Shown here in pieces: positions 7,085 to 21,154 of a stretch of 33,179 bases of DNA. A program made the translations under genes and the position numbers. The notes under the pieces are model-generated. The model did no database searches, was not told where the DNA came from, and saw only the letters and a program-made list of their open reading frames with translations. How positions within the stretch are numbered: the first letter of the stretch is position 1; every line of letters begins with the position of its first letter. Source of the stretch: Promethearchaeota archaeon (GTDB taxonomy: Archaea > Asgardarchaeota > Hermodarchaeia > Hermodarchaeales > Hermodarchaeaceae); NCBI GenBank assembly GCA_048938385.1, contig JBHLMG010000025.1:1-33179 (forward strand), read 5' to 3'.

Positions 7085-8689
7085 ATGCCTAGCGGTTTAA
7101 GCGTTTGCAGGTGGGACGACAAAGTTGGGCTCCGCATCGTCGGCGTGTACCCTCGCAACCTCAATGTGTCCGAAGATGACATGCTCCGGGTCTTTACAGC
7201 CCACGCTATGGGTAAACCTGAAGCTGGCTTCCTCACCATGACCCTCGAAGGAACCAACCTAGCCGTAGCCAGTTTCTATACTGGAATTTTACGAGGGCGT
7301 GATCAGTTTTGCATAATGTTGTTTATGGAACTGGACGAGGAACCGCGTAACTACGAAGAGGGTTTGACGCTGGCGTCGAGCGAGATTGTGGAGAACATTG
7401 GTGAGCCGGAATTTATTGAGTATTTAGGTGAAGTTTTTGAAAAGCTGAAGCGAATGGTGGAACTATCCGTGGAGCAGCGGCTTGCCAAGGTCTTCGTTGA
7501 TCAGGAGACGCGGTTGTTAATGCACAAACTAGCGCGCGGTGGGATTCCTGCAGAAGAATTACGAGAATGGTTAGAACTGCAAACCGGAAAGCACTATCCC
7601 GATCTGGGCTTGGTGACTTTGCCCTTGTTACGCAGTGGATTGGTAGAAGAAGATTGGATTAACGCGGTTTCAGATAACTGCGTGTTTTTGGTAAACGATT
7701 TGCTGGGTGCTCGGTTCCCACCTGAACAAGTGTTGAAGCTTGCCAAGGGTGGTGGCTTGAATAAGGAGCAGTTCAACGAGTTGGAGAACCGTGTAAAGAG
7801 TTACTTCGAAGCCTACGAATGGACCGAAGACGACACAATGATGATTGGTCAACTGCTTTTAGACCCAGATGTCTACGATGTGACCAAGACTCTACGAAGG
7901 AAGATAGCCCACAAATCTGAGCTAGCGGGCGTCGTAGAAAAAGAAGCGTCACTCGATAATGTCCTGCGTCGTCTTGAACAGTCACAGGTGGTAACGACAT
8001 TTGGTGAGAACTCAGTGGAGGTCGGTGCTAACGATGATCCTCTCATCGTGTTGATATCGGATGTGCACTTTGAATCATTCTTTCCCGAGTTTTTGGTCTT
8101 ACGGCTTCAAGAGCGGTTAACGGCTAAGGACATTCACCCTGATGTTGCTAAACGTCATCTCGAACTACTCAGTGAGACCTACATGCGTATGCGCGAGAAA
8201 ATGAAAGAACGCAAGAAGCGGAAGGAAGAAGAAGCGCTTCCAGTTGTTGAGCCAGAAATGGTTGTCGAACCTGAAGAATTCGTAGAACCCAGTGAAACGC
8301 CACCTCTTGATGAAGAAGAAGCAAAACGGATCCAAAAGGAAGAGGAGAAGGCACGGAAGGCGGAAGAGAAGCGGCTGAAGGAAGAGGAGAAGAAGCGCAA
8401 GAAAGAGGAAGAAGCGAAGCTCAAAGAAGAAGAAGCAGCACGGAAGGCGGAAGAGAAGCGGCTGAAGGAAGAGGAGAAGGCGCGGAAGGCAGAAGAGCGA
8501 AAGAAACAGAAGGAAGAGGAAGAGAAACGCAAAGCCGAAAAGGAGCGCCTAAAGGAAGAGGAGGAAGCGCGGAAGGCGGAAGAGAAGCGGCTGAAGGAAG
8601 AGGAGAAGGCGCGGAAGGCAGAAGAGAAGGAGCGAAAAAAAGAGAAGGCCGCTGAGAAAAAGAAGAAAGAAGAAGCCCCCGCTGAATAA
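7085..8689 (+). CDS. Longin/uDENN-like protein with putative winged-helix domains and a C-terminal E/K/R-rich helical tail
   Basis: N-terminal RWDDKVGLRIVGVYP (uDENN-like F/W-D-x3-G-x5-6-P motif); wHTH-like LPLLRSGLVEE and LDNVLRRLEQSQVV; about 125-aa charged tail. Confidence 0.8.
   Translation: MPSGLSVCRWDDKVGLRIVGVYPRNLNVSEDDMLRVFTAHAMGKPEAGFLTMTLEGTNLAVASFYTGILRGRDQFCIMLFMELDEEPRNYEEGLTLASSEIVENIGEPEFIEYLGEVFEKLKRMVELSVEQRLAKVFVDQETRLLMHKLARGGIPAEELREWLELQTGKHYPDLGLVTLPLLRSGLVEEDWINAVSDNCVFLVNDLLGARFPPEQVLKLAKGGGLNKEQFNELENRVKSYFEAYEWTEDDTMMIGQLLLDPDVYDVTKTLRRKIAHKSELAGVVEKEASLDNVLRRLEQSQVVTTFGENSVEVGANDDPLIVLISDVHFESFFPEFLVLRLQERLTAKDIHPDVAKRHLELLSETYMRMREKMKERKKRKEEEALPVVEPEMVVEPEEFVEPSETPPLDEEEAKRIQKEEEKARKAEEKRLKEEEKKRKKEEEAKLKEEEAARKAEEKRLKEEEKARKAEERKKQKEEEEKRKAEKERLKEEEEARKAEEKRLKEEEKARKAEEKERKKEKAAEKKKKEEAPAE
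8351..8626 (+). repeat. Intragenic 42-bp direct repeats (ARKAEEKRLKEEEK) x3 in a purine-rich tract
   Basis: GCRCGGAAGGCGGAAGAGAAGCGGCTGAAGGAAGAGGAGAAG at 8351, 8438 and 8567; copies 2 and 3 stay identical for a further 18 nt. Confidence 0.9.
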
Positions 8690-8707: not shown

Positions 8708-9367
8708 TCACAATCTCCGCTGTCTAGTTGATGTCAAGATACCTCGTGCGGTTTCCCAAGTTTGACGGACGATATCCGGAAACTTGTCATGTGATTTAAT
8801 CCAATCAATTAGAAACTTGCGCGTTTTCGGGTCGTTGGGATAACCGCTCCCAAAATCTCCAAAGGCTTTATGGAGTTCTTGAATTCGCTGGTCTCGTCGA
8901 ACCTTGGCAATTATTGATGCAGCAGCAACGACGGGATAGGCTGAATCTGCCTTGTGTTCACTGATAATCTTCTTCGGCGTTTTCAATTGCGTTGTGATGA
9001 GTCGACCGTAGCGCTCTGCGTTCACATCGGATGCATCCACATAGGCCGTCTGCCAGTTTAACCGATTCAAAACCTGAGCCATCCATTCCGCTTCTAAGAC
9101 ATTCAGGCTTCGCATTAATTTGCGTTGAGCATCGATTTCTTTAGCGCTAATCTCTAACACTTCGACTTGTTCAGCCAGTTTACGGATTTGTCGTTCAAGA
9201 GAGTTACGGCGATGTGGAGTAAGATCCTTAGAATCTCGAACACCCCATTCAATTAGCGCGTCTTCTTGCGATGCGTCGATGACAACACCTGCAATCACGA
9301 GTGGTCCTATCACCGGTCCACGCCCGGCTTCATCAATACCTGCAATGCGCTGCAATAATCTCAACAC
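8708..9367 (-). CDS. rnhB: Ribonuclease HII
   Basis: GIDEAGRGPVIGPLV, GVRDSK, VDASD, HKAD, VAAASIIAKVRRD, GSGYPNDP; true start may be TTG 9355. Confidence 0.97.
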   Translation of the reverse strand: MLRLLQRIAGIDEAGRGPVIGPLVIAGVVIDASQEDALIEWGVRDSKDLTPHRRNSLERQIRKLAEQVEVLEISAKEIDAQRKLMRSLNVLEAEWMAQVLNRLNWQTAYVDASDVNAERYGRLITTQLKTPKKIISEHKADSAYPVVAAASIIAKVRRDQRIQELHKAFGDFGSGYPNDPKTRKFLIDWIKSHDKFPDIVRQTWETARGILTSTRQRRL

Positions 9368-9437
9368 CTAATTTACTTGAACTTATGCACCAAAACCATT
9401 AACTGGTCTACAAATTTATCTGTAGGTACTTATTGTT

Positions 9438-9737
9438 TTGCTTGGGTCTTTAATGGTTGAATGTAAATATCCTGAAATCTGGCTTAGTACTTACGAAGGG
9501 CATTTTCGCGTATCTTCCCGTCTACCTCCGCCGGCAAAGGTTCCACCGGATTTTCTTTGCCTCCTTCCGGAAGGAGAAAGCACTCCTGTTTGCGTATCAC
9601 CTTTATATGCAACAATAGGTGAAGCAAAGGGTCGGGCCGCGGCACTACAAGAAGATCTACAAAAACAGGGTTGTAAAGTTCTCTTCTTCTTTGAACTCCG
9701 ACCTCCAATCGTTGGCAATCCGCATGAAACTAGCTAA
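9438..9737 (+). CDS. Hypothetical small protein
   Basis: 99-aa ORF filling the gap between rnhB and the DedA gene; C-terminal part weakly SPOR-like; start uncertain. Confidence 0.5.
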   Translation: MLGSLMVECKYPEIWLSTYEGHFRVSSRLPPPAKVPPDFLCLLPEGESTPVCVSPLYATIGEAKGRAAALQEDLQKQGCKVLFFFELRPPIVGNPHETS

Positions 9738-10521
9738 TGAGTTCTTCCTGCTCACTTTCTGAGGGTGGGCGCGCCTTTTGCTTGGCCTGTTTTGCCTTCC
9801 GCCGTATGACGATGCGATAAATGATGAAGACGATGAAGAAGATGAGGAGGATGACTAAAATCATTGTCTCCATGAGGTCTATCATTTCAGCAACTTGGAA
9901 AAAGAATGCACCAACAATCCAGCCTAAAATGCCAAGGACTAAGCAACGGGGCAGGGCACCAAGAAAAGTCACTATAGTAAATCGCTTGATGTCCGCGCGT
10001 AAAACACCATACAGGAGGGATACGAGAGAAAGAGGTATAATGGGTATAGCCCGTGCTGAGAAAAGAAAGATTTCATCTCGAGAGGATCTCTCCATTCTCT
10101 GCCGCATGTACTCAACTTCTTCTACGGATGTCCCCAAGTATTTTCCCCACCGTTCAATGATGGGATATCCACCAAAGTATGCGATCCCATATCCGAAAAA
10201 TGATCCAATGGTGACTGCAAAGGCTCCCACCAACATGACATTGATGACAATGATGAGCAAAGCGGTTGGAACTGGAATCGGAGAGCAGCTTGGGCAGGGG
10301 CTCGTCAGAATGAATCCTGCTGCCATCATAATAATTGGAGAGGGGATGGGCGCGATGAAAGTTTCTATCATCACACCTAGAAACACACCAATCGGTCCTA
10401 GCATTTGAATCCATGCGATGATGCTCCAAATCAGTCCCTCAATCCACGCATTTAGCGTTTGCAGCCAGGTGATGAATAAATCGATAATCACATTCGTGAC
10501 TTCCATCGAGGGTCTATTCAA
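9730..10521 (-). CDS. DedA/VTT (SNARE-associated Golgi protein family) membrane protein
   Basis: ETFIAPIPSPIIMMAAGF, GSFFGYGIAYFGG, ARAIPIIP..SLLYG, FTIVTFLGALPR. Confidence 0.92.
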   Translation of the reverse strand: MNRPSMEVTNVIIDLFITWLQTLNAWIEGLIWSIIAWIQMLGPIGVFLGVMIETFIAPIPSPIIMMAAGFILTSPCPSCSPIPVPTALLIIVINVMLVGAFAVTIGSFFGYGIAYFGGYPIIERWGKYLGTSVEEVEYMRQRMERSSRDEIFLFSARAIPIIPLSLVSLLYGVLRADIKRFTIVTFLGALPRCLVLGILGWIVGAFFFQVAEMIDLMETMILVILLIFFIVFIIYRIVIRRKAKQAKQKARPPSESEQEELIS

Positions 10522-10535
10522 TTTTCTATTTGGAG

Positions 10536-10874
10536 CTATTCTCCAGGGTGTTTACTCATGATCTCATCCCGGCTGGGAAACCCCTCGTCATCGACGAGAA
10601 CAATTTCGCCATAGCGACCAGCTGACAGTTCTAGCTCTCCACGGTAACTTTTCACATACCCATTGTTAACTTCTAGGATAGTGTCCTCATCGACTTTGTC
10701 GATGTCATCGTTCCAAAGCGATAATCTGATAGTTCCCGTATCATCCCCGGCAAGCGCAGTGGTTACACGGCTCTTACCATAGCGTGTTTGTACTTCTCGA
10801 ACAGGTTCCAATGTTAGGATGCGTAACCGAATGTTGACGCTTCGAGAAGCAGAAGTAAGTTCATGTACTTTCAT
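10536..10874 (-). CDS. Single OB-fold single-stranded DNA-binding protein (archaeal SSB/RPA-like)
   Basis: MKVHEL..VNI..AGDDTGTIRLSLWND..NGYVKSYRGELELSAGRYG. Confidence 0.92.
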   Translation of the reverse strand: MKVHELTSASRSVNIRLRILTLEPVREVQTRYGKSRVTTALAGDDTGTIRLSLWNDDIDKVDEDTILEVNNGYVKSYRGELELSAGRYGEIVLVDDEGFPSRDEIMSKHPGE

Positions 10875-10963
10875 AGTCTACAAACCTTCACAGTGAAATG
10901 TTACAAAGATGTACTAATGCACACTTTTAAAAATTCTATGTACCGAGGTTTTGGGCGTATAGA

Positions 10964-12712
10964 GTGTTATTGTTGATGTCAGGTTCTATGAAGTCCTCTC
11001 AATCGTCTTTTCTCAAGTTGGCTAAAGTCTCTGAAGCCATCATGGGTACCACAAAGCGCCTTGAGAAAATGGATTTAGCAGGAGAGTTTCTCAGTCAACT
11101 CCCGGTAGACCAACTTGAAGCTGGTGCCCTTCTACTCATTGGTCGACCCTTTCCGCGAACAAGTCAACGAACCTTGGCAATAAATTGGTCAGCACTATAT
11201 CAGATCCTACGCGAGCTCCTTCAGCCAACTCCATCGTTGATTCATAAGCTCTTTGCCCAAACAGGCGATATCGGCGAGGTTGTTCACCAACTATACCTGC
11301 AGGCAGGCAATATCCGTCAAACGATGCTTTTTTCATCGCCACTGGAGATTACCGAGGTTGCTTCAACATTCACTGAAATGGCTGACATTCAAGGTGCAGG
11401 CTCTCGAAAACGAAAAACAACGCTATTACGGTCTTTGTTTACTCGCGCTCAACCGCTTGAAGCTAAGTACCTGGCAAAGCTACTAGTCGGGGATCAACGG
11501 ATTGGATTTAGCGTCGGAATGTTAGAAAGTGCAATAGCCCGGTATTTGAAATTGCCTTCAGACTTAGTGCGTCGAGCCAACATGCTTACAGGTAATATTG
11601 GGGAAGTCGCTCGAATCGCTTTTATAAAGGGAGCAGCTGGTCTACAGCAGGTCCGATTACAACCCTTCACACCACTACTTCCCATGTTAGCTGCTCAGGC
11701 AACCGATGTCAGTGACGCTCTACAAATCCATAATGGCACTTCGGCATTTGAAATGAAATTAGACGGTGCTCGCGTACAAATTCACCTACAACGCCAGAAT
11801 CAACGCTCAAATATCCGCATTTATAGTAGACGCCTGACTGATGTTACCACGAGTCTTCCTGATGTCGTGAACCTGGTTGCCACCGAAGTGAAAGCGCACA
11901 GTTGCATTCTGGAAGGTGAGGTCCTCGCAATCGGGGAGGATGGACGCCCACTACCCTTTCAACATCTTATGCGCCGGTTTCGACGTGTTCGCGACATCGA
12001 GGCCATGGTTCAAGAAATCCCTGTAACTTTACACCTCTTTGACCTTCTAATGCTTAATCAAGAGGTCCTCATCGATACAGCATATACTGTGCGCCGTCAG
12101 AAATTGGAACAAATACGAGGAAAAATTCCACTGGTCGATCAACTAATCACATCAGATGTCGATGTAGGAACCCAATTATTTGAGAAAGCGATTGAGGCAG
12201 GCCATGAAGGACTGGTTGCCAAACGCCTGGACAGTCCTTACCAACCTGGAATTCGCGGTAAGGCTTGGTTGAAAGTTAAACAAAGCATGGAAAACCTTGA
12301 CCTCGTTATCATTGCTGCTGAATGGGGTACAGGGCGCCGTCATAGATGGCTGAGCGACTATCATTTAGCTGCAACGGATCCTGAAACCGGTGAATTCCAT
12401 ATGTTAGGAAAAACCTTCAAAGGTCTCACTGATGCTGAATTCGCTGAGATTACTCAGCGCCTGTTAGACTTGAAAATCGAACAGACGGGCGGAATCGTGA
12501 CAGTACAACCTCAGATTGTGGTTGAGGTCGAATATGATGAAATTCAACGAAGCCCTACTTATAAGTCAGGAATGGCTCTGCGTTTTGCGCGTATTAAGCG
12601 CCTACGCTATGACAAGGACCCCAAAGAAGCTGATACTATCCATCGCGTTCAGGAGCTTTACGAGTCCCAATTTGAACGGAAGGCATCGTTGAATCGGGTA
12701 GGGCGAACCTAG
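10964..12712 (+). CDS. lig: ATP-dependent DNA ligase
   Basis: Motif I EMKLDGARVQIH, LEGEV, LFDLL, EGLVAK, WLKVK, LRFARIKRLRYDK; start could be ATG 10976 or 10988. Confidence 0.97.
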   Translation: MLLLMSGSMKSSQSSFLKLAKVSEAIMGTTKRLEKMDLAGEFLSQLPVDQLEAGALLLIGRPFPRTSQRTLAINWSALYQILRELLQPTPSLIHKLFAQTGDIGEVVHQLYLQAGNIRQTMLFSSPLEITEVASTFTEMADIQGAGSRKRKTTLLRSLFTRAQPLEAKYLAKLLVGDQRIGFSVGMLESAIARYLKLPSDLVRRANMLTGNIGEVARIAFIKGAAGLQQVRLQPFTPLLPMLAAQATDVSDALQIHNGTSAFEMKLDGARVQIHLQRQNQRSNIRIYSRRLTDVTTSLPDVVNLVATEVKAHSCILEGEVLAIGEDGRPLPFQHLMRRFRRVRDIEAMVQEIPVTLHLFDLLMLNQEVLIDTAYTVRRQKLEQIRGKIPLVDQLITSDVDVGTQLFEKAIEAGHEGLVAKRLDSPYQPGIRGKAWLKVKQSMENLDLVIIAAEWGTGRRHRWLSDYHLAATDPETGEFHMLGKTFKGLTDAEFAEITQRLLDLKIEQTGGIVTVQPQIVVEVEYDEIQRSPTYKSGMALRFARIKRLRYDKDPKEADTIHRVQELYESQFERKASLNRVGRT

Positions 12713-15700
12713 CTGGATAGTCTGATTTCCTTAGATGCAGAAATCCACCGTGGGCCAAGGGTTTGGTTGAATAGAGCGATGTAGCTAGCTTGGTCGCTAA
12801 CTATGGCTACGATTTCTCCTTGGTTGCCATAAGTGGGAGCGATGAGGACCTCTTCACCATCTCGTGACCCCCCATAAAATTCCATGTTGGGGTTATCCCA
12901 AATACGGATGTTACCCTGTTGCAAAAGCTTTTGGGCTGCTGTTCGCTGCTTTTCTCCGTCAAGAGTCGTAATGATGTGTACGCGGTTCTGTGGTCGCACT
13001 TTGGATAATTCATCGATTGGTACTTCATCAAAGGATGGATACACTAAGGTAACGGTTGCGTTGACACGTCGGAACATATCTAGTAAGTGATTCTGAATTC
13101 CTTGGCAGGACACTATTCGCCAAGTTCTTTCCGCTTCTGCAGGCTGAACGCCTGTAAGGGTATCCCACAAACTTGTCAGAATCTGTTCCGTATCACTTGC
13201 ATGTTTCCGGAGCTCGTCTAACAGGGGTTCAGTCTTCTGAGTAAACAGTTGAAGAGTTTTTATCGAATTAGTTACGGTTGAGCTGAAGTTCGAGGTCATG
13301 TCCTTTGAGAGTTTCTGGTGTTCAGTTTTTAGGGTGGTTCGTTCTTTACTCAAGGCTCCACTAACGCGATTACCTGTCTGCTGAGCTTGGGTTACTAGAC
13401 CCTCTTCCACGGAGCTAATGTTTTGCTTGAGCGCGGCTTCAACAGCTGTACTCCTTTGTTGAAGCTCCGTTGTTGCAGTGTCTTTGAAGGCTTGTAGGTT
13501 CTCAGTAGTATGACGGATACTATCATCGGTAGCGCGGGTCAACCGGTTCTTTGTCAAATCCAATTGTTGAGTGTAACTTTGGAAGGTTTGTTCAGTTTCC
13601 TGACTTATACTGTTGTTGAATTTTTCGACATCTTCTTCAATTGTCGCACTAGTATCTGAGAAGAGTTTGTCAACCTCTGTAGAAAGGGTGGAAAAGTTAG
13701 TCGTTAGAGTTTGTATGAGCACATCTGAAGTTGTCTTGGCTTTTTCGTCAATGGAGGAAAGGCAATCTAATACCTTTAATGTGAGTTGTTCGGTTTCACC
13801 GGTGACAGTGCTCTGTTGGGTTTGAGTAATCTGTGCACTCTTTGAGATGGCTTTGGAGAGAGTATCATCGAGGTCTGTTTTGATCTGGGCGCTGCTGAGA
13901 TCAAGTTTCTCTTTTCCTTCATCTTTCCATTTAGATAGTTGGGTGACAACATTTGTTTGTGAGGTGGATATTTGCTCAATCAGGGATTCGAGAGCAGACG
14001 AGACATCTTTGTCAATTGATGTATGCTGCTCATCAAGGACGCTAATTAGATCCTCATGGTATGTTTGAATCCGATCCTGTAATTCGGTTTCCAAAGCTGT
14101 TCGGTTAGTTTTAATTTTGTCAACCAGTTTTGCTGCAACAGTTTGAAGTTGTACGATTTCTTGCTGAAGGTTATTGATGTACTGTTCCGTTTCATCGGAT
14201 AATGTGCTTGCAAAGGTTTCAAGGTGTTTTTTAATGGCCATGTGTTGCTGATCGATATTTGTAGTGCAAGCTTGTCCAATCTCTTCAATAATATTCTGAG
14301 CGCTTTGAAGTTGATTTTGCTGGAAGTTTTCAAGCCCCGTTTCGATCTCTCCAATTCCTTCGATTATTTTTGAGCTCTGTTCGAAAATTAAATCCTGAAT
14401 GCTTTTGCTTAGGTTTTCGATGCGTCCTTCCTGTTCCTCTAACTCGGTTTCGATATTTGCTACAAAGGCATCAGCGGGTTCACGAATTCCTCCAAGATTG
14501 GAGGTTACCGTTTTGATATCTTCAGCCATGGTGTCCATTTTTTGATTCAAAGAGGTTTTTTGAACAGCAACCTCTTGACTGAGGGTTTCCAACATACCTT
14601 GGGTCTCTTGAAGTTGTGAAACCCAATCTTCTTGCATTTTATTGAAGCCTTGAGTGATTTGTTCCTTGACCCCTGTCTTTTCTCGATCAAAAGCCTGGGC
14701 AGTAGCCGTCAACAAGTTGCCTACATCATCCTCAAACATCGTCATCGCTGTTGCTGTGTTCACCATCGTCTGGTCAACTGAAGTAGTGATGGCGGTGCTC
14801 AAGGCATTGAGATTAACAGCAGTAGTGGTGGAGTATTCGTCAATGAAGTAAGTGAGGGGAAGCCAATGTTTTTCTGTAAGGGCTTTGGAATCTGCGTCGA
14901 ATTTTTCCCACTCCTCGCTTAGTTCGGTTCCTGTGCCTTTTAGAATCGGTTTGATCTTAGGCACTTGGTTTGTGTAGAATTCTTTGAGTTTTGGAAGCAG
15001 TTGTTTCGCAAGAGTGCTTTCTAAGGTAGTGAGGAAAACAGGGCTTATTTGAGATTCTACTTCTGTTCGTGTTTCCTCGAGGGTTCTACGAGTGTCTTCA
15101 ATCATTTTTTCAGTGGTGTTTTGGAGGGCAGTGGAGATCGTCTTTGTCAGCGTTTCAGCGGTGTTTATGCCTTTACGTTGGGCGTTCAGAGACTGAAGTT
15201 CTGCTTGAATGTTGGTGACAAATGTTTGTAGTAATTGTTCAAATGCGGATTTGACTTCTTGGACTGGAGAATATACTGTGGCGACTTGATCGTTAAGTTG
15301 TTGTTCGTATACTTCTAAGAGTATTTCATTAGGAACCTGCTCTAAGCTAGTCAGGGTGGATTTGAAAATTGAAGAAACTTGTTTGGCACGGTCGGTCTGG
15401 GGAGTGAGTTGTGCCTCAAAACTTTGGAAAATATTTGCGATTTCTTGTTTGAGTTTTGAAGAAAGAGTTTTGTTGCTTGGTCCAAGAATTTGGTTTGTAG
15501 TTGTTTTGATTTGTTCCAATGTGGTTCTAATCAACTTGTCAATTTGTTTCCTGCGTCGAATCTGTCTTCCCACTTTCCTCTTACAATCCTGAAGAATAGA
15601 TGAAATTTTTTCTTGTAGTGTTTGATCAACCAAAGAGGTGAGGCGGTCGTTGGTCTGCCGTTGAACCGAAGCTAGTTTCTCTCGAATTCCTAAAAAGAGG

Positions 15701-18093
15701 GCGTCTAGCTGCTTAGAATGCTTGGATTGTTGGGCGGTGAGAGTTTTTTGCACTTGAGTTGTAATGTCTTGCACATTTGCTTCGATTGTATTGGTAATTT
15801 CGGTACTTACTGTCTTCTGCACCGCGGCTGGAAATTGTTCGTTGATTTTTGAGAATGCAGCAGAGATAGTTTGCAGCTCTACGGCTTCTAACTGAGTTTG
15901 CTTTTTCTTCTGATAGGTCAGAAAAGAAGCGAGGCTATATTCAGGAATTAGTTCAGAAAGAACGGTGTTTAGATCATTAATCAATTGTCTGTCTCGTTTG
16001 GATACCTGAGTCGAGAGTCTTCGAAGGGCTTTGGAAGCGGCTTTTTCACGACTTTCTGTCAAAACCTCAAGCGCTGAGGGGTAATTCGTCATCGCTTTTT
16101 TAATTCTATGAAGCTGTTCTTCACGAAGTGTTTCAGCAGTATTTCTGATGCCCGCCGAATATTCGTTAAAGGTAGCTTCAAGCTGAGAAATTTCCTGTTG
16201 AAGTGCGCTCGTGGCACTTGAAGTGATTTTCTTTAATTCGGTTTTGAAGCTCTGCAGTTGCTTATCAACCACTATTTGAGCAGCTGTAGATTTTGCAAGG
16301 TTATCGCTCGCTGCTTGGGTTATCTCCTTGCGCATCTTGCGAAGACGGTCCTTGACGAATTGGTCGATTTGTCCTTCTATGCTTAATAGGGTCTGAAAAA
16401 TCCCAGAAGCCTCTTGATTTAAGAGTTTTTGAGTTCGTTTGGTAAGCGTTCGGTTTTGTTCCTCTTGAAGGGAGATTTTTGCTTGAAACTCGGTAATAAA
16501 CGATTCAGTGATTTTCCTTATAGTGGCCAACCGCCGTTTCAAGCGTTTACCAACTTGATCAGCTATATCCTGGAAACTCGTAGAAAGGGTTGATTGTTGT
16601 GTTCTAAGAGTTTCAGTAAGTTTCTGCAAAATAGTTCGCATTTCAAGAAGCTGTGCTAAGTAAGTATTTTTCAACTGAATGTTGAATTCTGACTTGCCTG
16701 TTTTGAGGAGGCGGTCGTGTTCAGCTGCCACTTGTTCTATTAGGGTGGATAAAACGGATTGTATTTTTGCGAACTGGCTAAATTGGAGAGCTTTTGGCGG
16801 CCATTGCGAAATAGTGGCTTCCGTTTCTTTTAACATACTTTGCGTTGCTGTATTATTGGTGTTAACTGCGCTAATCAAAGATTTGTGGAGGTTCTCTGCG
16901 CTTTGAATGGACGCTTCTTGTATTGCTTTAATTTCAGTTTCTGTGACTGTTGCAATTTTTTCTGTGTTTTGTGTCAGCTTTCGTGTTTCCCTATTGAAGG
17001 TTTTTTCCAGTTCCGTAGTAATCTGATCCAACATCTGTGAACGCTTCTTCAAAGCATCTCGAAGGCTCCCATCAATTGCATTGAGATCTTTTGTTAAGGT
17101 TCGTTCGAGTTCTTTTTGGAAGGTAGCAAGAGCTTGTTGGACTTGCTGATTGAAAAGTTGAATTGAATTATTCAAAGATGTAGTGGTTTCTTCTACGAAG
17201 TCGGTGATAGACTCTCTTTGAGAAGTGATCTCCGATGTTATTGCCGTAATACCTGAGTTAGTGCTGCGTTGATGAATCGACTTGGCGTCTTCAAGGTTGG
17301 CCGTGGTGTGTTTCGTTAATTCAGATGACTGTTCCAAAAATCGACTGGCCGTAGAAGTAATCCAGTTTTCAGCTTCCTCATAGTGTGTTTGTATAGCCTT
17401 TTCTGCGTCTTCTAAAGCTGATTTTTGGCTCTCTTTTAATTGGGTTATTCCTTCTTCGATAATCTGAATTAATGACTCCTGTAACCCCGTCGTTTGGCTG
17501 GAGAACTCATCAATGCTAGTATCAGATAATTTTGTTAAAGAGCTTTGTAGATTCTTTGCAACATTGCCTAGCTCAATTTTCGTTGTCATCGCCACTTCAT
17601 TTAATGAAATTCCTTGGCGTTCATTGAGGCTGTCTAAAGTGGTCTTTGTCTCTTTTAACAACGAGTCCAATTGAGCTTGAAAGTCGATAAGCATTTTCTG
17701 CTGAAGTTGTTGGAGTTGTTTCCATGAGGTTTCAGTTTCTGCAGCAAAAGCCTGAACCTCGTTTGCCAGTTCCTGATATGGGGCGAAGGCTCGATAGCGA
17801 GCAACGACACCAGGTAGGGGTTTAATGAGGTGCTTCTTTTCTAGAGCCTCTAAAGTTGAAGAAAGCTTCGCGAAGGGCACGCCCGAATAGAGACTGGTCT
17901 CGTCTTGTGTAAGCTGACCCATAATTAGTAGAGCGGAATAGACCTTGCTTTGGGATTCAGTTAATTTAAAACGAGATTGCATTACTTTGAGTAATTCGGG
18001 GGTGGTCTCAAATGGTAAGGGGCATTGGAGAGTACCGGATTCCTTCTCCGGCGAATTAGTGGGGTTGGTTTTATTCTCTTCTGGCGTCATCAC
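12709..18093 (-). CDS. Giant TrmB-like protein: N-terminal wHTH, about 1550-aa helical/coiled-coil region, C-terminal PLD-like TrmB effector-type domain
   Basis: KLTESQSKVYSALLIMGQLT..SGVPFAKLSSTLEALEKKHLI..RYRAFAP (TrmB wHTH); long Q/E/L/T/S-rich, Pro/Gly-poor middle; C-terminal NHLLDMFRRVNATVTLVYP..VHIITT..SRDGEEVLIAP..AIVSDQ. Confidence 0.85.
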   Translation of the reverse strand: MMTPEENKTNPTNSPEKESGTLQCPLPFETTPELLKVMQSRFKLTESQSKVYSALLIMGQLTQDETSLYSGVPFAKLSSTLEALEKKHLIKPLPGVVARYRAFAPYQELANEVQAFAAETETSWKQLQQLQQKMLIDFQAQLDSLLKETKTTLDSLNERQGISLNEVAMTTKIELGNVAKNLQSSLTKLSDTSIDEFSSQTTGLQESLIQIIEEGITQLKESQKSALEDAEKAIQTHYEEAENWITSTASRFLEQSSELTKHTTANLEDAKSIHQRSTNSGITAITSEITSQRESITDFVEETTTSLNNSIQLFNQQVQQALATFQKELERTLTKDLNAIDGSLRDALKKRSQMLDQITTELEKTFNRETRKLTQNTEKIATVTETEIKAIQEASIQSAENLHKSLISAVNTNNTATQSMLKETEATISQWPPKALQFSQFAKIQSVLSTLIEQVAAEHDRLLKTGKSEFNIQLKNTYLAQLLEMRTILQKLTETLRTQQSTLSTSFQDIADQVGKRLKRRLATIRKITESFITEFQAKISLQEEQNRTLTKRTQKLLNQEASGIFQTLLSIEGQIDQFVKDRLRKMRKEITQAASDNLAKSTAAQIVVDKQLQSFKTELKKITSSATSALQQEISQLEATFNEYSAGIRNTAETLREEQLHRIKKAMTNYPSALEVLTESREKAASKALRRLSTQVSKRDRQLINDLNTVLSELIPEYSLASFLTYQKKKQTQLEAVELQTISAAFSKINEQFPAAVQKTVSTEITNTIEANVQDITTQVQKTLTAQQSKHSKQLDALFLGIREKLASVQRQTNDRLTSLVDQTLQEKISSILQDCKRKVGRQIRRRKQIDKLIRTTLEQIKTTTNQILGPSNKTLSSKLKQEIANIFQSFEAQLTPQTDRAKQVSSIFKSTLTSLEQVPNEILLEVYEQQLNDQVATVYSPVQEVKSAFEQLLQTFVTNIQAELQSLNAQRKGINTAETLTKTISTALQNTTEKMIEDTRRTLEETRTEVESQISPVFLTTLESTLAKQLLPKLKEFYTNQVPKIKPILKGTGTELSEEWEKFDADSKALTEKHWLPLTYFIDEYSTTTAVNLNALSTAITTSVDQTMVNTATAMTMFEDDVGNLLTATAQAFDREKTGVKEQITQGFNKMQEDWVSQLQETQGMLETLSQEVAVQKTSLNQKMDTMAEDIKTVTSNLGGIREPADAFVANIETELEEQEGRIENLSKSIQDLIFEQSSKIIEGIGEIETGLENFQQNQLQSAQNIIEEIGQACTTNIDQQHMAIKKHLETFASTLSDETEQYINNLQQEIVQLQTVAAKLVDKIKTNRTALETELQDRIQTYHEDLISVLDEQHTSIDKDVSSALESLIEQISTSQTNVVTQLSKWKDEGKEKLDLSSAQIKTDLDDTLSKAISKSAQITQTQQSTVTGETEQLTLKVLDCLSSIDEKAKTTSDVLIQTLTTNFSTLSTEVDKLFSDTSATIEEDVEKFNNSISQETEQTFQSYTQQLDLTKNRLTRATDDSIRHTTENLQAFKDTATTELQQRSTAVEAALKQNISSVEEGLVTQAQQTGNRVSGALSKERTTLKTEHQKLSKDMTSNFSSTVTNSIKTLQLFTQKTEPLLDELRKHASDTEQILTSLWDTLTGVQPAEAERTWRIVSCQGIQNHLLDMFRRVNATVTLVYPSFDEVPIDELSKVRPQNRVHIITTLDGEKQRTAAQKLLQQGNIRIWDNPNMEFYGGSRDGEEVLIAPTYGNQGEIVAIVSDQASYIALFNQTLGPRWISASKEIRLSS

Positions 18094-18209
18094 TCATCAC
18101 CTTCTACGCGTATAGGTACTTGCGTAGGTGTGGAATATGATTTGTTTCTCAAGTCTAATTGTTTTGCATCACCCTCTATAAGGATGATGCGTAACAGTTC
18201 CGTAGTGAT

Positions 18210-19373
18210 CTAGAACTTTTCTTTGAGTATTTGCTCTAGGGCTGCTAAAACGCCAGATCCCAATGGGAATTCGAATCCAAGACGCTTCAAGGCAATTTCA
18301 ATTATCGCTATCGTTGAAAGGATATCGCGCTCAGTGCAGATATTCATGTGATTGGTTCGCCAAATCTTACCTTTCACAGGACCTTGTCCACCTGCAACGA
18401 GGATTCCTAAATTACGAACCTGCGTCCGAAATTCGCTATCATTGATGCCTGAGGGGTATTTGACGGCTGTAACGGTGTTAGAATAATGAGCAGGATCAGC
18501 AAGAAGATCTAGTCCCATCCCTTGGTATCCAGCACGCGTGATGCGTCCAAGTCGTCGATGGCGTTCAACGCGTTGTTCATAACCTTCTTCGAACATCATA
18601 GTCAAGGATTCGTGAAGTCCATAAATGAGACTCACGGCTGAAGTAAAGGGAGAATCACCGAATCCATCGTATCGCTTCTTTGCTTTGGGCAAGTCAAGAT
18701 AGAATGTGGGATTAGGTTGTTTTCGACTTTCAATGTGCCTCCATGCACGTGAACCAACCCAGATGATGCCTAATCCAGGAGGTACTCCTAGACATTTTTG
18801 GCTCCCTGTCACAAGGATGTCAAAATTCCATTTATCAGGGTAAACATAATCTCCACCAACCGAGGTTATACCGTCAACGAGTAAGAGGCGGTCATAGTCA
18901 CGAACAATCTGCCCAATTTCCTTAGCAGGATTCAGAACACCTGTAGATGTCTCGTTATGGCAAATAGTTACTGCTCGAATAGTCTGATCAGAGGCTAATA
19001 CATCTCGAATTCCATCCGGCTCCGCGGCTTCTCCATATGCGTATTCTACAACTTCTGATACGCCTCTGAAGGCCGTGGTGAGTTCAGACCATCGTTCGCT
19101 AAATTTTCCATTCACAACATTCAAGACTTTTTCACCAGGTTCAATGATGTTCGCAATAGCAGCCTCCATTGCTGCCGTGCCAGAACCTGCGAAAATCAAG
19201 ACATCTTGTTCTGTGTGAAGTAATCGCTGCAACAGTGCAACCGTTTCCTTGTAAAGAGTCTGATACTCCTTTGTCCTATGTCCGTAAACCATTCGAGACA
19301 TTGCCCGATAGACTCGTGGATGGACAGGTACAGGTCCAGGGATCATTAAAGTCGTGAGTTCTTCATCATACAT
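18210..19373 (-). CDS. Class V PLP aminotransferase (alanine-glyoxylate/serine-pyruvate family)
   Basis: MIPGPVPV, GSGTAAMEAA, HNETSTGV, VDGITSVGG, GSQKCLGVPPG (Schiff-base Lys present). Confidence 0.95.
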   Translation of the reverse strand: MYDEELTTLMIPGPVPVHPRVYRAMSRMVYGHRTKEYQTLYKETVALLQRLLHTEQDVLIFAGSGTAAMEAAIANIIEPGEKVLNVVNGKFSERWSELTTAFRGVSEVVEYAYGEAAEPDGIRDVLASDQTIRAVTICHNETSTGVLNPAKEIGQIVRDYDRLLLVDGITSVGGDYVYPDKWNFDILVTGSQKCLGVPPGLGIIWVGSRAWRHIESRKQPNPTFYLDLPKAKKRYDGFGDSPFTSAVSLIYGLHESLTMMFEEGYEQRVERHRRLGRITRAGYQGMGLDLLADPAHYSNTVTAVKYPSGINDSEFRTQVRNLGILVAGGQGPVKGKIWRTNHMNICTERDILSTIAIIEIALKRLGFEFPLGSGVLAALEQILKEKF

Positions 19374-19489
19374 TCTAGTACAGCACCTAACAGCTGTAAT
19401 TCCTCAGCATCACAATCAATGCTATAAGCCTTTGCGTCTTCAAAGGCAAAGAAGTACATTTAAGCTTCTGTGAATAGCTTCCCGGACCA

Positions 19490-21154
19490 TTAGGCGGGGA
19501 AGTGCCGGTATTTCAAATAGGTTAATGCTTCGTAGAAATACTTCCCGCCGAACACACCACTGGTTTTTAATCCACCAAGATGCGGATAAAATGTATCGAA
19601 GTGGAGGTGATCGGTGTTAATAGCGACTCCAGGAGATTCTATCTCATCGAAGAATCGTTGCCAAATATCTGGATCGTCACTGTATACTGAGGTTCGAATG
19701 CCGTAAGGAGTATTGTTGGCTTGAGCAATGGCTTGATCGAAGGAATGAATTTTCATGACCGGTAATACGGGTCCAAAGGTTTCCTGGTACCACATTCTGC
19801 AATCTAGGGGTACATCTCGCAGTATCGTGGGCTTGTAGAAAAGCCCTGCATCATCTCGGTCCCCGTGGACATTTAAGCGATAACCTCCGCATTCCAGTTT
19901 CGCTCCTTTCTTTAGTGCTTCTTGGGTCATATCCACAACTTGGTATAAGGCACGGCTTCCTAAGATTGGTAAGTCTGTATCTGGATTTGCCGGAAGGCCG
20001 GTTTTCAACGATTCACTTTCTTCAACCAGTGCTTCAATGAACTCATCGTAAATAGCTTCATGAAGGAACAACCGTTTTGCTGCAAGGCAAATTTGTCCTG
20101 AACCAAAGAAACGCGCATGAGATACAAACGCAGCGGTCTTTCTGATATCCACATCTTTCCAAACCAAGCTTGCGCCACTCCCTGCCAGCTCAGGTATAAA
20201 ATGTATGCCGCGTTGGATGGCTTGAGCCATTAATTGCAGACCAATCTTTGAATCGCCATAGTATACCATCGCGTTTAATGGGGCTTTTTTGACCATGTAT
20301 TGTGCAATCGGTCGGGCGGGGCCAATGACGGCTTGAAAGGCACTTAATGGAAATTCCAAGTTTTCCATGGCATCTCGGAGCACATAAGCGAGTTCCATGT
20401 TGGTGAGCGGCATTCGTGCAGGCGTTCGTGTCACATTCGCGTTTCCGGCATAATATGAGCTAAGAATCGCTGTAAATCCTAAACCTAGTGCCGTATTGTA
20501 AGGTGGAAAGATCCCTACTGCACCAAAGGGGTACCTGGTTAAGACCGTTCTCTCTCCGTTAACAGAACAAGGAATCTCTTTTGCTTCGAGTCTATTTGTG
20601 ATAAAATCCGCTTTTTCTTGACAAAGAGTATTGAAGGATTTAATTGTCTGCCAGTCAAATAATTTGATAGGCGTCCCTTCTGCAATGGCAATCGACTTAA
20701 ACGCATCGTAATGCTTCCACATAAAATCGCTTAAAGGAAGAAGGCTTGCCATCCGCTCTTTCAGGGTTAATCCCTTCCCCTTTTCATGTAACTCACGATG
20801 CATCAAATGTCGGATTCTCGCTGCTTCTTCACAAGCTATTGCTGTCTCCTTAACGCCTCCGACGGCATATTTAGCAAAAAGAACCTCATGAATCTCATCC
20901 TTAGAAGCCTTGGGATACCCGTGGACTCGAATATAATCTTTAAGCATCCGAACCTCTGGCGTTTTCTCTGGCAATAACCCGCTGAAATAACGAGCTGCGA
21001 AGCGACTCAGCGTTTTTTGCCCTTCCAAGGCCATGGCAAAAAGAATTCGTGGCTCACCAATCACCTTATTCATATTCGGGAAACTACGAACTTGCCCTTC
21101 TTGTGGCTTAGTGATTTCACCTTTGATTAGATGTCCAAAGAACCGCATTGACAA
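19490..21154 (-). CDS. Divergent aldehyde dehydrogenase family protein
   Basis: PPYN, AGN, ELAG, SGQICLAAKR (catalytic Cys), PTIL, ETFGPV, ANNTPYG; start may be ATG 21148. Confidence 0.88.
   Translation of the reverse strand: MSMRFFGHLIKGEITKPQEGQVRSFPNMNKVIGEPRILFAMALEGQKTLSRFAARYFSGLLPEKTPEVRMLKDYIRVHGYPKASKDEIHEVLFAKYAVGGVKETAIACEEAARIRHLMHRELHEKGKGLTLKERMASLLPLSDFMWKHYDAFKSIAIAEGTPIKLFDWQTIKSFNTLCQEKADFITNRLEAKEIPCSVNGERTVLTRYPFGAVGIFPPYNTALGLGFTAILSSYYAGNANVTRTPARMPLTNMELAYVLRDAMENLEFPLSAFQAVIGPARPIAQYMVKKAPLNAMVYYGDSKIGLQLMAQAIQRGIHFIPELAGSGASLVWKDVDIRKTAAFVSHARFFGSGQICLAAKRLFLHEAIYDEFIEALVEESESLKTGLPANPDTDLPILGSRALYQVVDMTQEALKKGAKLECGGYRLNVHGDRDDAGLFYKPTILRDVPLDCRMWYQETFGPVLPVMKIHSFDQAIAQANNTPYGIRTSVYSDDPDIWQRFFDEIESPGVAINTDHLHFDTFYPHLGGLKTSGVFGGKYFYEALTYLKYRHFPA

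Follow-up and report, generated by a model that had tools for sequence, protein, structure and literature searches.

A 33,179-nucleotide stretch of DNA from a Promethearchaeota archaeon (assembly GCA_048938385.1, contig JBHLMG010000025.1; hereafter the window) carries on its minus strand a giant gene, the product of which combines TrmB-like end domains with a helical spacer of 1,525 residues. We lean, with moderate confidence, towards a TrmBL2-like protein in which a coiled coil of fixed length, with two antiparallel arms built from 11-residue repeats (hendecads), has taken the place of the short linker helix; this coiled coil is probably folded in cis as a hairpin and would form a rod that is anchored to DNA. 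A first-pass annotation, made from the sequence alone, had described TrmB-like termini around an enormous amphipathic helix and had suggested an ATP-independent DNA tether or scaffold or, alternatively, a lipid-binding bundle. The data presented here support much of that description, change the geometry it implied and place the protein within a large archaeal family.

End domains, spacer and length

The gene and the main parts of its product are located as follows:

12709..18093, minus strand: whole gene, 1794 codons plus stop, GTG start; the probable true start is the ATG at 18090, which gives 1793 amino acids (aa)
17779..17979, minus strand: TrmB-type winged helix-turn-helix (wHTH), residues 39-105, PF01978 with E 3e-9; same coordinates from the genome search
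15484..17748, minus strand: N-arm of the hendecad coiled coil, residues 116-870, with a conserved neck (116-190) and constant-phase blocks (111-418 and 441-700)
14857..16080, minus strand: distal third of the spacer, punctuated by proline, residues 672-1079, with 12 of the 16 spacer prolines
13144..15462, minus strand: C-arm of the hendecad coiled coil, residues 878-1650, with a constant-phase block (1190-1600) and a conserved neck (1551-1650)
12712..13140, minus strand: C-terminal TrmB/TrmBL2-type PLD-like domain lacking the HKD motif, residues 1652-1794, from an AlphaFold2 model, fold matches and a family profile

At the N-terminus, the wHTH scores 36.9 bits against PF01978, for which the cut-off is 25.6. 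Orthologues with no more than 43-59% overall identity still share about 80% in the C-terminal domain. The last ~143-170 aa of the protein alone gave no Pfam match, and a shallow profile of the domain found only chance matches among PDB sequences. A profile of 79 diverse family C-termini matched TrmBL2 (5box) weakly and collinearly (E 0.05), and 29 of these 79 sequences matched PF11495 (Regulator_TrmB). Using the same 79 sequences, AlphaFold2 modelled the domain with a predicted local distance difference test score (pLDDT) of 93.9; this run replaced an earlier one with 18 close orthologues (pLDDT 53.8). In a Foldseek search with the model, TrmBL2 and TrmB came first (E 6e-9 to 1e-6), followed by nucleases of the PLD fold. 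VIA-align superimposed the model on residues 110-243 of TrmB 2f5t with Z 16.9 and a root mean square deviation (rmsd) of 2.3 Å over 130 aligned residues, on TrmB 3qph with Z 15.9, and on TrmBL2 with Z 14.3-14.7 (rmsd 2.5-2.6 Å, 132-135 aligned); the PLD nucleases Nuc and NucT share the fold at Z 13.7-14.7. The match to TrmB stops at residue 243 of 2f5t, where our protein ends, and the sugar-binding barrel subdomain that follows in TrmB is absent, as it is in TrmBL2. As modelled, the domain therefore corresponds to the TrmB-type alpha/beta domain that comes after the dimerisation helix.

Several more specific assignments can be discarded. Against the TrmBL2 equivalog NF041141 the protein reaches 27.2 bits (cut-off 530), and against the sugar-sensing TrmB equivalog NF040851 23.8 bits (cut-off 600), in both cases by its wHTH part only. 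This rules out a TrmBL2 orthologue and, together with the missing barrel subdomain, a sugar-sensing TrmB. The H.K....D motif does not occur anywhere in the protein, nor H.K in the C-terminal domain, which excludes a catalytic member of the PLD/Nuc superfamily. There is no Walker A motif (G/AxxxxGK[ST]) and no SMC/Rad50-type match in Pfam or NCBIfam, and lacking Walker A the protein is not an ATPase. With a maximum 19-residue hydropathy of 1.06 it has no transmembrane segment and is not a membrane protein. In consequence, the first-pass annotation was right in its calls of a TrmB wHTH at about residues 40-110, of a TrmB/PLD-like C-terminal domain without HKD and of a chain free of Walker motifs and transmembrane segments: the N-terminus lies above the profile cut-off and the modelled C-terminal fold is of the TrmB type, so that the match of the termini to TrmB, on which that annotation had made its reading depend, is borne out.

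The middle of the protein (116-1640) is amphipathic, poor in proline (1.0%) and glycine (2.2%), and rich in T, L, Q, E and S. Its hydrophobic periodicity has a single dominant period of 3.68 residues with a power of 10.3, compared with a mean maximum of 1.3 and a 95th percentile of 1.8 in shuffled sequences. At period 3.5 most 84-residue windows show a power of less than 0.5; a few reach 0.9-1.6, and nowhere in the spacer does this period dominate. The hydrophobic autocorrelation peaks at lags 11, 22, 44, 33, 66 and 55, and the hendecad phase is constant over the blocks listed above, which extend up to ~400 residues. The spacer is thus made of 11-residue repeats (11/3) and not of heptads; a canonical heptad coiled coil is rejected, which settles the choice between 7- and 11/22-residue periodicity that the first-pass annotation had left to be checked, and its very long amphipathic helical middle is confirmed as phase-coherent. 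By general coiled-coil theory, such repeats give nearly straight helices rather than left-handed ones. The distal third, where most of the prolines lie, is for this reason more jointed than the rest of the spacer.

Periods of 11 and 22 residues are also a signature of lipid-binding amphipathic helices, and PF01442 (Apolipoprotein) matches seven stretches of the spacer with 65.3 bits. Both observations would suit a lipid or membrane coat of the apolipoprotein, perilipin or synuclein kind, with 11-mer helices lying unpaired on a surface. We nevertheless regard such a coat as highly improbable, since the PF01442 score stays under the gathering threshold of 90 bits, which excludes membership in the apolipoprotein A1/A4/E family, the 22-mers are not punctuated by proline, the helical region is net negative over most of its length, and the termini are domains of a DNA-binding family. 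In addition, the indels are paired and mirrored (see below), which argues for helix-helix pairing. The lipid-bundle option of the first-pass annotation is accordingly given up.

The second distinctive property of the spacer is its length. Assemblies from ENA, JGI, NCBI and Logan yielded 27 homologues, of which the full-length ones have 1788-1795 aa and 43-59% identity. Together with this protein, 20 other full-length proteins, including the 29%-identical member P0037, align in 1798 columns with almost no gaps, and within the spacer of the orthologous group this 21-sequence alignment contains only four indels, each of a single residue. The distance from the anchor P105 in the wHTH to W1658 in the C-terminal domain is 1552-1554 in all orthologues, P0037 included. 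The presence of collinear full-length orthologues in many independent assemblies rules out the assembly chimera that the first-pass annotation had named as a danger to its reading and, with no DNA tandem repeat found within the gene, also a recent repeat expansion. In the 1408-aa relative P0038, four gap blocks that extend over residues 658-1079 (midpoint 868.5) together remove 388 residues; the placement of gaps against P0035 is ambiguous, as the repeats align in several registers, and MAFFT gap patterns are uninterpretable in groups of 13-26% identity. An anchor distance kept within two residues at 29% identity, the discrete length classes of the wider family and the mirrored, paired indels point to a striking constraint on spacer length, and to physical length as the trait that may be under selection.

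This constraint bears on the most conventional reading, namely an ordinary gene-specific regulator of the TrmB type, in which the helical region would be an interaction or sensory platform and its length structurally irrelevant. TrmB family members are mostly regulators, relatives of this protein are labelled 'sugar-specific transcriptional regulator TrmB' by JGI, and the wing as well as part of the recognition helix of the wHTH are conserved among the orthologues. However, the barrel subdomain with which TrmB binds sugar is missing, it is not evident why a sensor should keep an exact length down to 29% identity or fall into discrete length classes whose indels are paired, and no partner gene is conserved across the length classes. 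We therefore consider a regulator of this kind improbable. The exactness of the length conservation suggests instead a putative spacer or tether of defined dimension. The view of the first-pass annotation that the protein acts independently of ATP and is no ordinary regulator agrees with this on both counts, as no ATPase is present and the length constraint fits a structural or ruler role better than that of a sensor-regulator.

Mirror symmetry and the proposed pairing of the arms

In TrmBL2, Sso10a and Lrs14 proteins an antiparallel coiled coil arises from the helix that follows the wHTH, and TrmBL2 becomes a tetramer through dimer-dimer contacts of its C-terminal domain (Sul12a paper, PMC9025068). 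Because these related helices pair antiparallel, we looked for mirror symmetry in the spacers of the present family. A sister branch of five proteins (P0154, P0137, P0122, P0140 and P0127; 36-44% identity) has spacers of 624, 638, 660, 748 and 836 aa, and in all five the motif RG[SA]A[WF]KAL lies at an identical offset from the midpoint between the anchors. Both spacer halves have therefore grown equally, by 7, 11, 44 and 44 residues each. In the alignment of this branch, the gaps of the N-half equal those of the C-half at mirrored places (88 with 44+44, 18 with 18, 11 with 11, 22+22 with 44), and nowhere is the spacer better conserved than in the central motif. Equal mirrored indels are a signature known from chemoreceptor hairpins, and their occurrence here shows, at the level of sequence, that the two spacer halves of the sister branch would pair antiparallel. 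At the centre of these proteins K-R-G-S-A-W-K-A-L-F-x-G-K-H-K is conserved, with an amphipathic set of W, L and F plus Lys, and four of the five have a proline at a distance of exactly 97 residues from this centre; the conserved stretch is a candidate for the functional tip of the sister-branch rods.

For the giant protein itself, four further features matter in this context:

16795..16803, minus strand: invariant W431-P432-P433 kink of the N-arm, which mirrors the invariant L1316-Q1317 at i+j=1749 (T1318 is conserved to at least 90%)
14119..14202, minus strand: most conserved patch of the C-arm, residues 1298-1325, opposite the WPP kink in mirror register
15463..15498, minus strand: proposed turn or dyad centre, residues 866-877, ILGPSNKTL here and LPKTLLPKEKK in most orthologues
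15523..15585, minus strand: basic patch CKRKVGRQIRRRKQIDKLIRT, residues 837-857, net charge +9, adjoining the centre, with R847 and Q850 invariant

Its smoothed conservation mirrors itself with r 0.65-0.80 at i+j = 1748-1752, compared with at most 0.43 for direct shifts. Invariant residues coincide best at a sum (S) of exactly 1749, also when the necks are excluded (6 of 28 against a mean of 1.2), and the mirrored invariants are distributed along the arms (W244/Q1505, W431-I444 with Y1305-Q1317, F616/Q1133, T652/A1097, R682/D1066, R847/R902 and Q850/Q899). Entropy-normalised mutual information, calculated from only 21 sequences, is highest in the anti-diagonal band S = 1738-1758 (z ~6). The gap blocks of P0038 described above, centred on 868.5, also count in favour of antiparallel pairing. 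In view of the mirrored indels of the sister branch and of these mirrored invariants and covariation, the N- and C-halves of the protein most likely pair antiparallel and bring the end domains together. Of the earlier picture of two domains separated by a spacer, the long spacer stands, whereas the domains would not be held apart but, judging from the mirror symmetry, probably sit together at one end of the rod.

A number of results weigh against this pairing or blunt the evidence for it. After detrending and removal of the ends, the conservation mirror drops to r 0.45 (z ~2), which is a scan maximum and not significant alone, and |r| 0.55 turns up elsewhere in the detrended scan. The peak of invariant pairs (6) is barely above the next best values (5). 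Most of the covariation signal originates in the neck (116-181 with 1568-1633) and between 743-808 and 941-1006; of 44 blocks, only 6 have their mirror partner among the top three. When the mirror-conservation test was applied to four other length classes, represented by few and poorly aligned sequences, it gave inconsistent centres. A complex prediction of residues 1-450 with 1299-1794 scored 0.13 (mark 0.32) and constitutes no evidence either way.

Even where mirror symmetry is accepted, it cannot separate pairing within one chain from pairing between two. In the latter case, two full-length chains would form an antiparallel homodimer in trans, a rod of ~225 nm with the wHTH of chain A and the C-terminal domain of chain B at each end, which could act as a long-range DNA-DNA bridge. 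Such a dimer predicts the identical mirror symmetry and paired indels, and it would retain the ancestral geometry of the family as seen in Sso10a and TrmBL2 (PMC9025068). The hendecad phase is unbroken across the centre (815-947), which fits a continuous helix at least equally well as a hairpin. Moreover, many length classes have no Pro or Gly, and hence no such helix breaker, at the predicted centre, some spacers of >1,000 aa are without any Pro, and segments inserted at the centre during growth would be self-complementary if two chains pair in trans.

On the other hand, the composition of the centre argues for a turn. The mirror centre of 874.5 falls on L-G-P-S-N in this protein and on LPKTLLPKEKK in most of its orthologues, and Gly and Pro are found at 866-876 in nearly all 21 sequences; only one of the two residues is present in P0003, P0004 and P0007, and none in P0020. 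The Gly would cap one helix at its C-terminal end and the Ser or Pro the next helix at its N-terminal end (L-G-P-S here, R-G-S in the sister branch), an arrangement typical of helix-helix corners. A deletion of one residue at 869, in the centre, is tolerated in one orthologue (P0008), and the strongest conservation within the sister-branch spacer lies at its centre, as expected for a functional tip. Weighing both sides, we think the trans dimer unlikely, though it has more in its favour than the other alternatives to the hairpin. A parallel homodimer, corresponding to the literal spacer of the first-pass annotation with two wHTH domains ~225 nm away from two C-terminal domains, has very little probability in our view. 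Long parallel dimers are common among coiled-coil tethers, and none of our findings is directly incompatible with parallel pairing in this protein. Such an arrangement does not require mirrored indels and invariants, however, and the helices of TrmB-type proteins pair antiparallel (PMC9025068).

In the cis hairpin, which we favour, residue i of the N-arm (~116-870) would lie opposite residue ~1749-i of the C-arm (~878-1640). This pairing would unite the wHTH and the C-terminal domain into a TrmBL2-like head at one end of the rod, and the opposite end would consist of the Gly/Pro-delimited turn preceded by the strongly basic patch. At 0.148 nm per residue, the continuous arm (116-670 with 1080-1640) would measure ~82 nm, and the whole rod up to ~112 nm with the distal part extended. 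The head is predicted to bind DNA through its wHTH and probably oligomerises via the highly conserved C-terminal domain, as in TrmBL2. Independently of ATP, the rod could then act as a tether or spacer that sets a defined distance from the DNA to the contact partner of the tip.

An Asgard-wide family and the gene in its context

A profile of the C-terminal domain, searched against 1.84 billion representative proteins, gave 216 matches. Among the matches listed, 75 are complete members with both end domains; they range from 323 to 1907 aa with spacers of 62-1645 aa, and in all 75 the spacer periodicity peaks near 3.67 residues. Exact anchor-distance classes recur, with 724 in five clusters, 764 in four, 878 in three and 1092 in five, in addition to the 1554 class; across classes, spacer length follows no clean rule modulo 11, 22 or 7. 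This length distribution, which the first-pass annotation had proposed to inspect, is therefore one of discrete classes, with the class of the present protein fixed at 1552-1554.

In a sample of 400 Asgard genomes, 392 contain between one and eight matches to the same profile, and the named members are all Asgard archaea (Promethearchaeota, Lokiarchaeota, Helarchaeota, Sigynarchaeota, Njordarchaeia, Ranarchaeia, Borrarchaeum and Jordarchaeales); one cluster member is additionally labelled Korarchaeota. Homologues apparently also occur in complete, single-contig Asgard genomes. Based on the genome counts and the naming, the family is lineage-defining in the closest archaeal relatives of eukaryotes. 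We found no published description of it in the literature on Asgard TrmB, coiled-coil, hendecad or apolipoprotein proteins, so that the family is apparently undescribed so far and this protein the long end of an Asgard-wide family rather than a one-off. A second member is encoded in the same genome on another contig (631 aa, G000:C2 ~133582-135477, L010:121-2016). Its wHTH-like N-terminus is undetected by Pfam and is followed by ~400 aa of helix and a TrmB-like C-terminal domain, and a peptidase M20 gene lies next to it. The ordinary TrmB paralogues of this genome (273 and 281 aa) do not match the family profile. Many of the genome-search matches (family f20) enclose or border on a single stop codon (TAA, TAG or TGA), which may reflect the profile overrunning the natural stop.

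If the rods tether or space chromatin, they would have a bearing on how the Asgard nucleoid is organised without a nuclear envelope. In a wider and more speculative picture, which we rate as rather unlikely, the family would supply phylum-wide, ATP-independent and length-quantised rods (37-125 nm per arm across paralogues) with a TrmBL2-like DNA-bound head and a basic or hydrophobic tip that binds the membrane or another tip, and these rods would set fixed chromatin-envelope or DNA-DNA distances. As prokaryotic rulers, they would then correspond to tethers of the type of the Rad50 hook and the lamina/LINC spacers, and they would be candidate organisers of the compact, ribosome-excluding nucleoid that one study reports for Asgard cells (PMC8776820).

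Concerning the gene itself, 12709..18093 is the only long frame in that stretch of the minus strand. It opens with GTG-ATG (window 18088-18104), the second codon being the ATG at 18090, and it is preceded by one further feature:

18096..18104, minus strand: Shine-Dalgarno-like GAAGGTGAT, 5 nt upstream of the ATG at 18090; read from the sequence, with a presumed function

An identical database protein (P0002) has 1793 aa, and database orthologues begin with MTP. Because of GAAGGTGAT just upstream and the length of the database copy, translation probably starts at 18090 and the protein has 1793 rather than 1794 aa. The gene has a lowered GC content and a strong AT skew, consistent with a protein composition rich in T, Q, E and K.

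The neighbourhood common to this gene and that of P0037 consists of Aldedh, aminotransferase V, the giant gene, a convergent DNA ligase, an Ssb-like OB protein, a VTT protein and RNase HII. The syntenic block (window 8708-12712 and 18210-21154; loci L011 and L012) is kept where the giant proteins are only 45% and 29% identical, and it also holds an unannotated protein of ~490-534 aa and an Arf-like GTPase. In the window, the open reading frame at 7085-8689 (plus strand, 534 aa) has no Pfam match at E 0.01, and an unannotated frame of similar size occupies the same syntenic position in L011 and L012. The ATP-dependent DNA ligase gene (10964-12712, plus strand) is convergent with the giant gene, and their 3' ends overlap by 4 nt, which leaves no room for separate terminators. 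No neighbours were found in common between other length classes and this locus, and a conserved operon partner across the family is accordingly rejected. As the conservation of these neighbours does not extend beyond this length class and the ligase gene is transcribed towards the giant gene, the presence of ligase, Ssb-like OB protein and RNase HII says little about function.

Comparison with known systems

The closest architectural parallel is TrmBL2, the chromatin protein of the Thermococcales (5bpd, 5box, 5bpi, 5bqt), which has the same order of parts, with wHTH, antiparallel amphipathic helix and PLD-like domain, and likewise no sugar barrel. TrmBL2 binds DNA non-specifically and forms a tetramer through its C-terminal domain (PMC9025068). 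It differs in size, with ~264 aa and a helix of ~40-50 aa in contrast to a helical part of ~1,525 aa here that is hendecad-based and length-quantised, and its C-terminal domain is only ~15% identical to that of the present protein. TrmB, the sugar-sensing regulator of Pyrococcus (2f5t, 3qph), shares the wHTH family PF01978 and provides the best structural match to the C-terminal domain (Z 16.9), but only its residues 110-243 are matched and the barrel that follows them has no equivalent here. Sso10a, a chromatin protein of Sulfolobus, resembles our protein in that its post-wHTH helix forms an antiparallel coiled coil (PMC9025068), whereas Sso10a has ~95 aa, a rod of a few nm and no C-terminal domain.

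Outside the TrmB-like proteins, the cytoplasmic hairpins of chemotaxis receptors (MCP) offer a likeness in their long antiparallel hairpin, their discrete and exact length classes and their indels mirror-paired about a conserved tip. MCP cytoplasmic domains reportedly are antiparallel hairpins that fall into discrete length classes (Alexander & Zhulin 2007). In contrast, the present protein is built from hendecads and not heptads, has neither the MCP signalling domain nor a membrane anchor, and ends in domains of a DNA-binding family, so the relation is an architectural analogy and not homology.

SMC, Rad50 and MukB are DNA-associated structural proteins in which N- and C-terminal parts come together in one head, with a very long antiparallel coiled coil between them whose length is conserved and whose apex is specialised. 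In its proposed cis form the protein would resemble them, with its N- and C-terminal parts as one head at the base of a very long antiparallel coiled coil. It differs from them in having no ABC ATPase, hinge or zinc hook, in a head composed of wHTH and PLD-like domains, and in arms that would be up to ~2x as long as those of SMC proteins. The ruler logic of this family, with its length classes and mirrored units of 7, 11, 18 and 44 residues, is otherwise known from chemoreceptors and SMC-type proteins.

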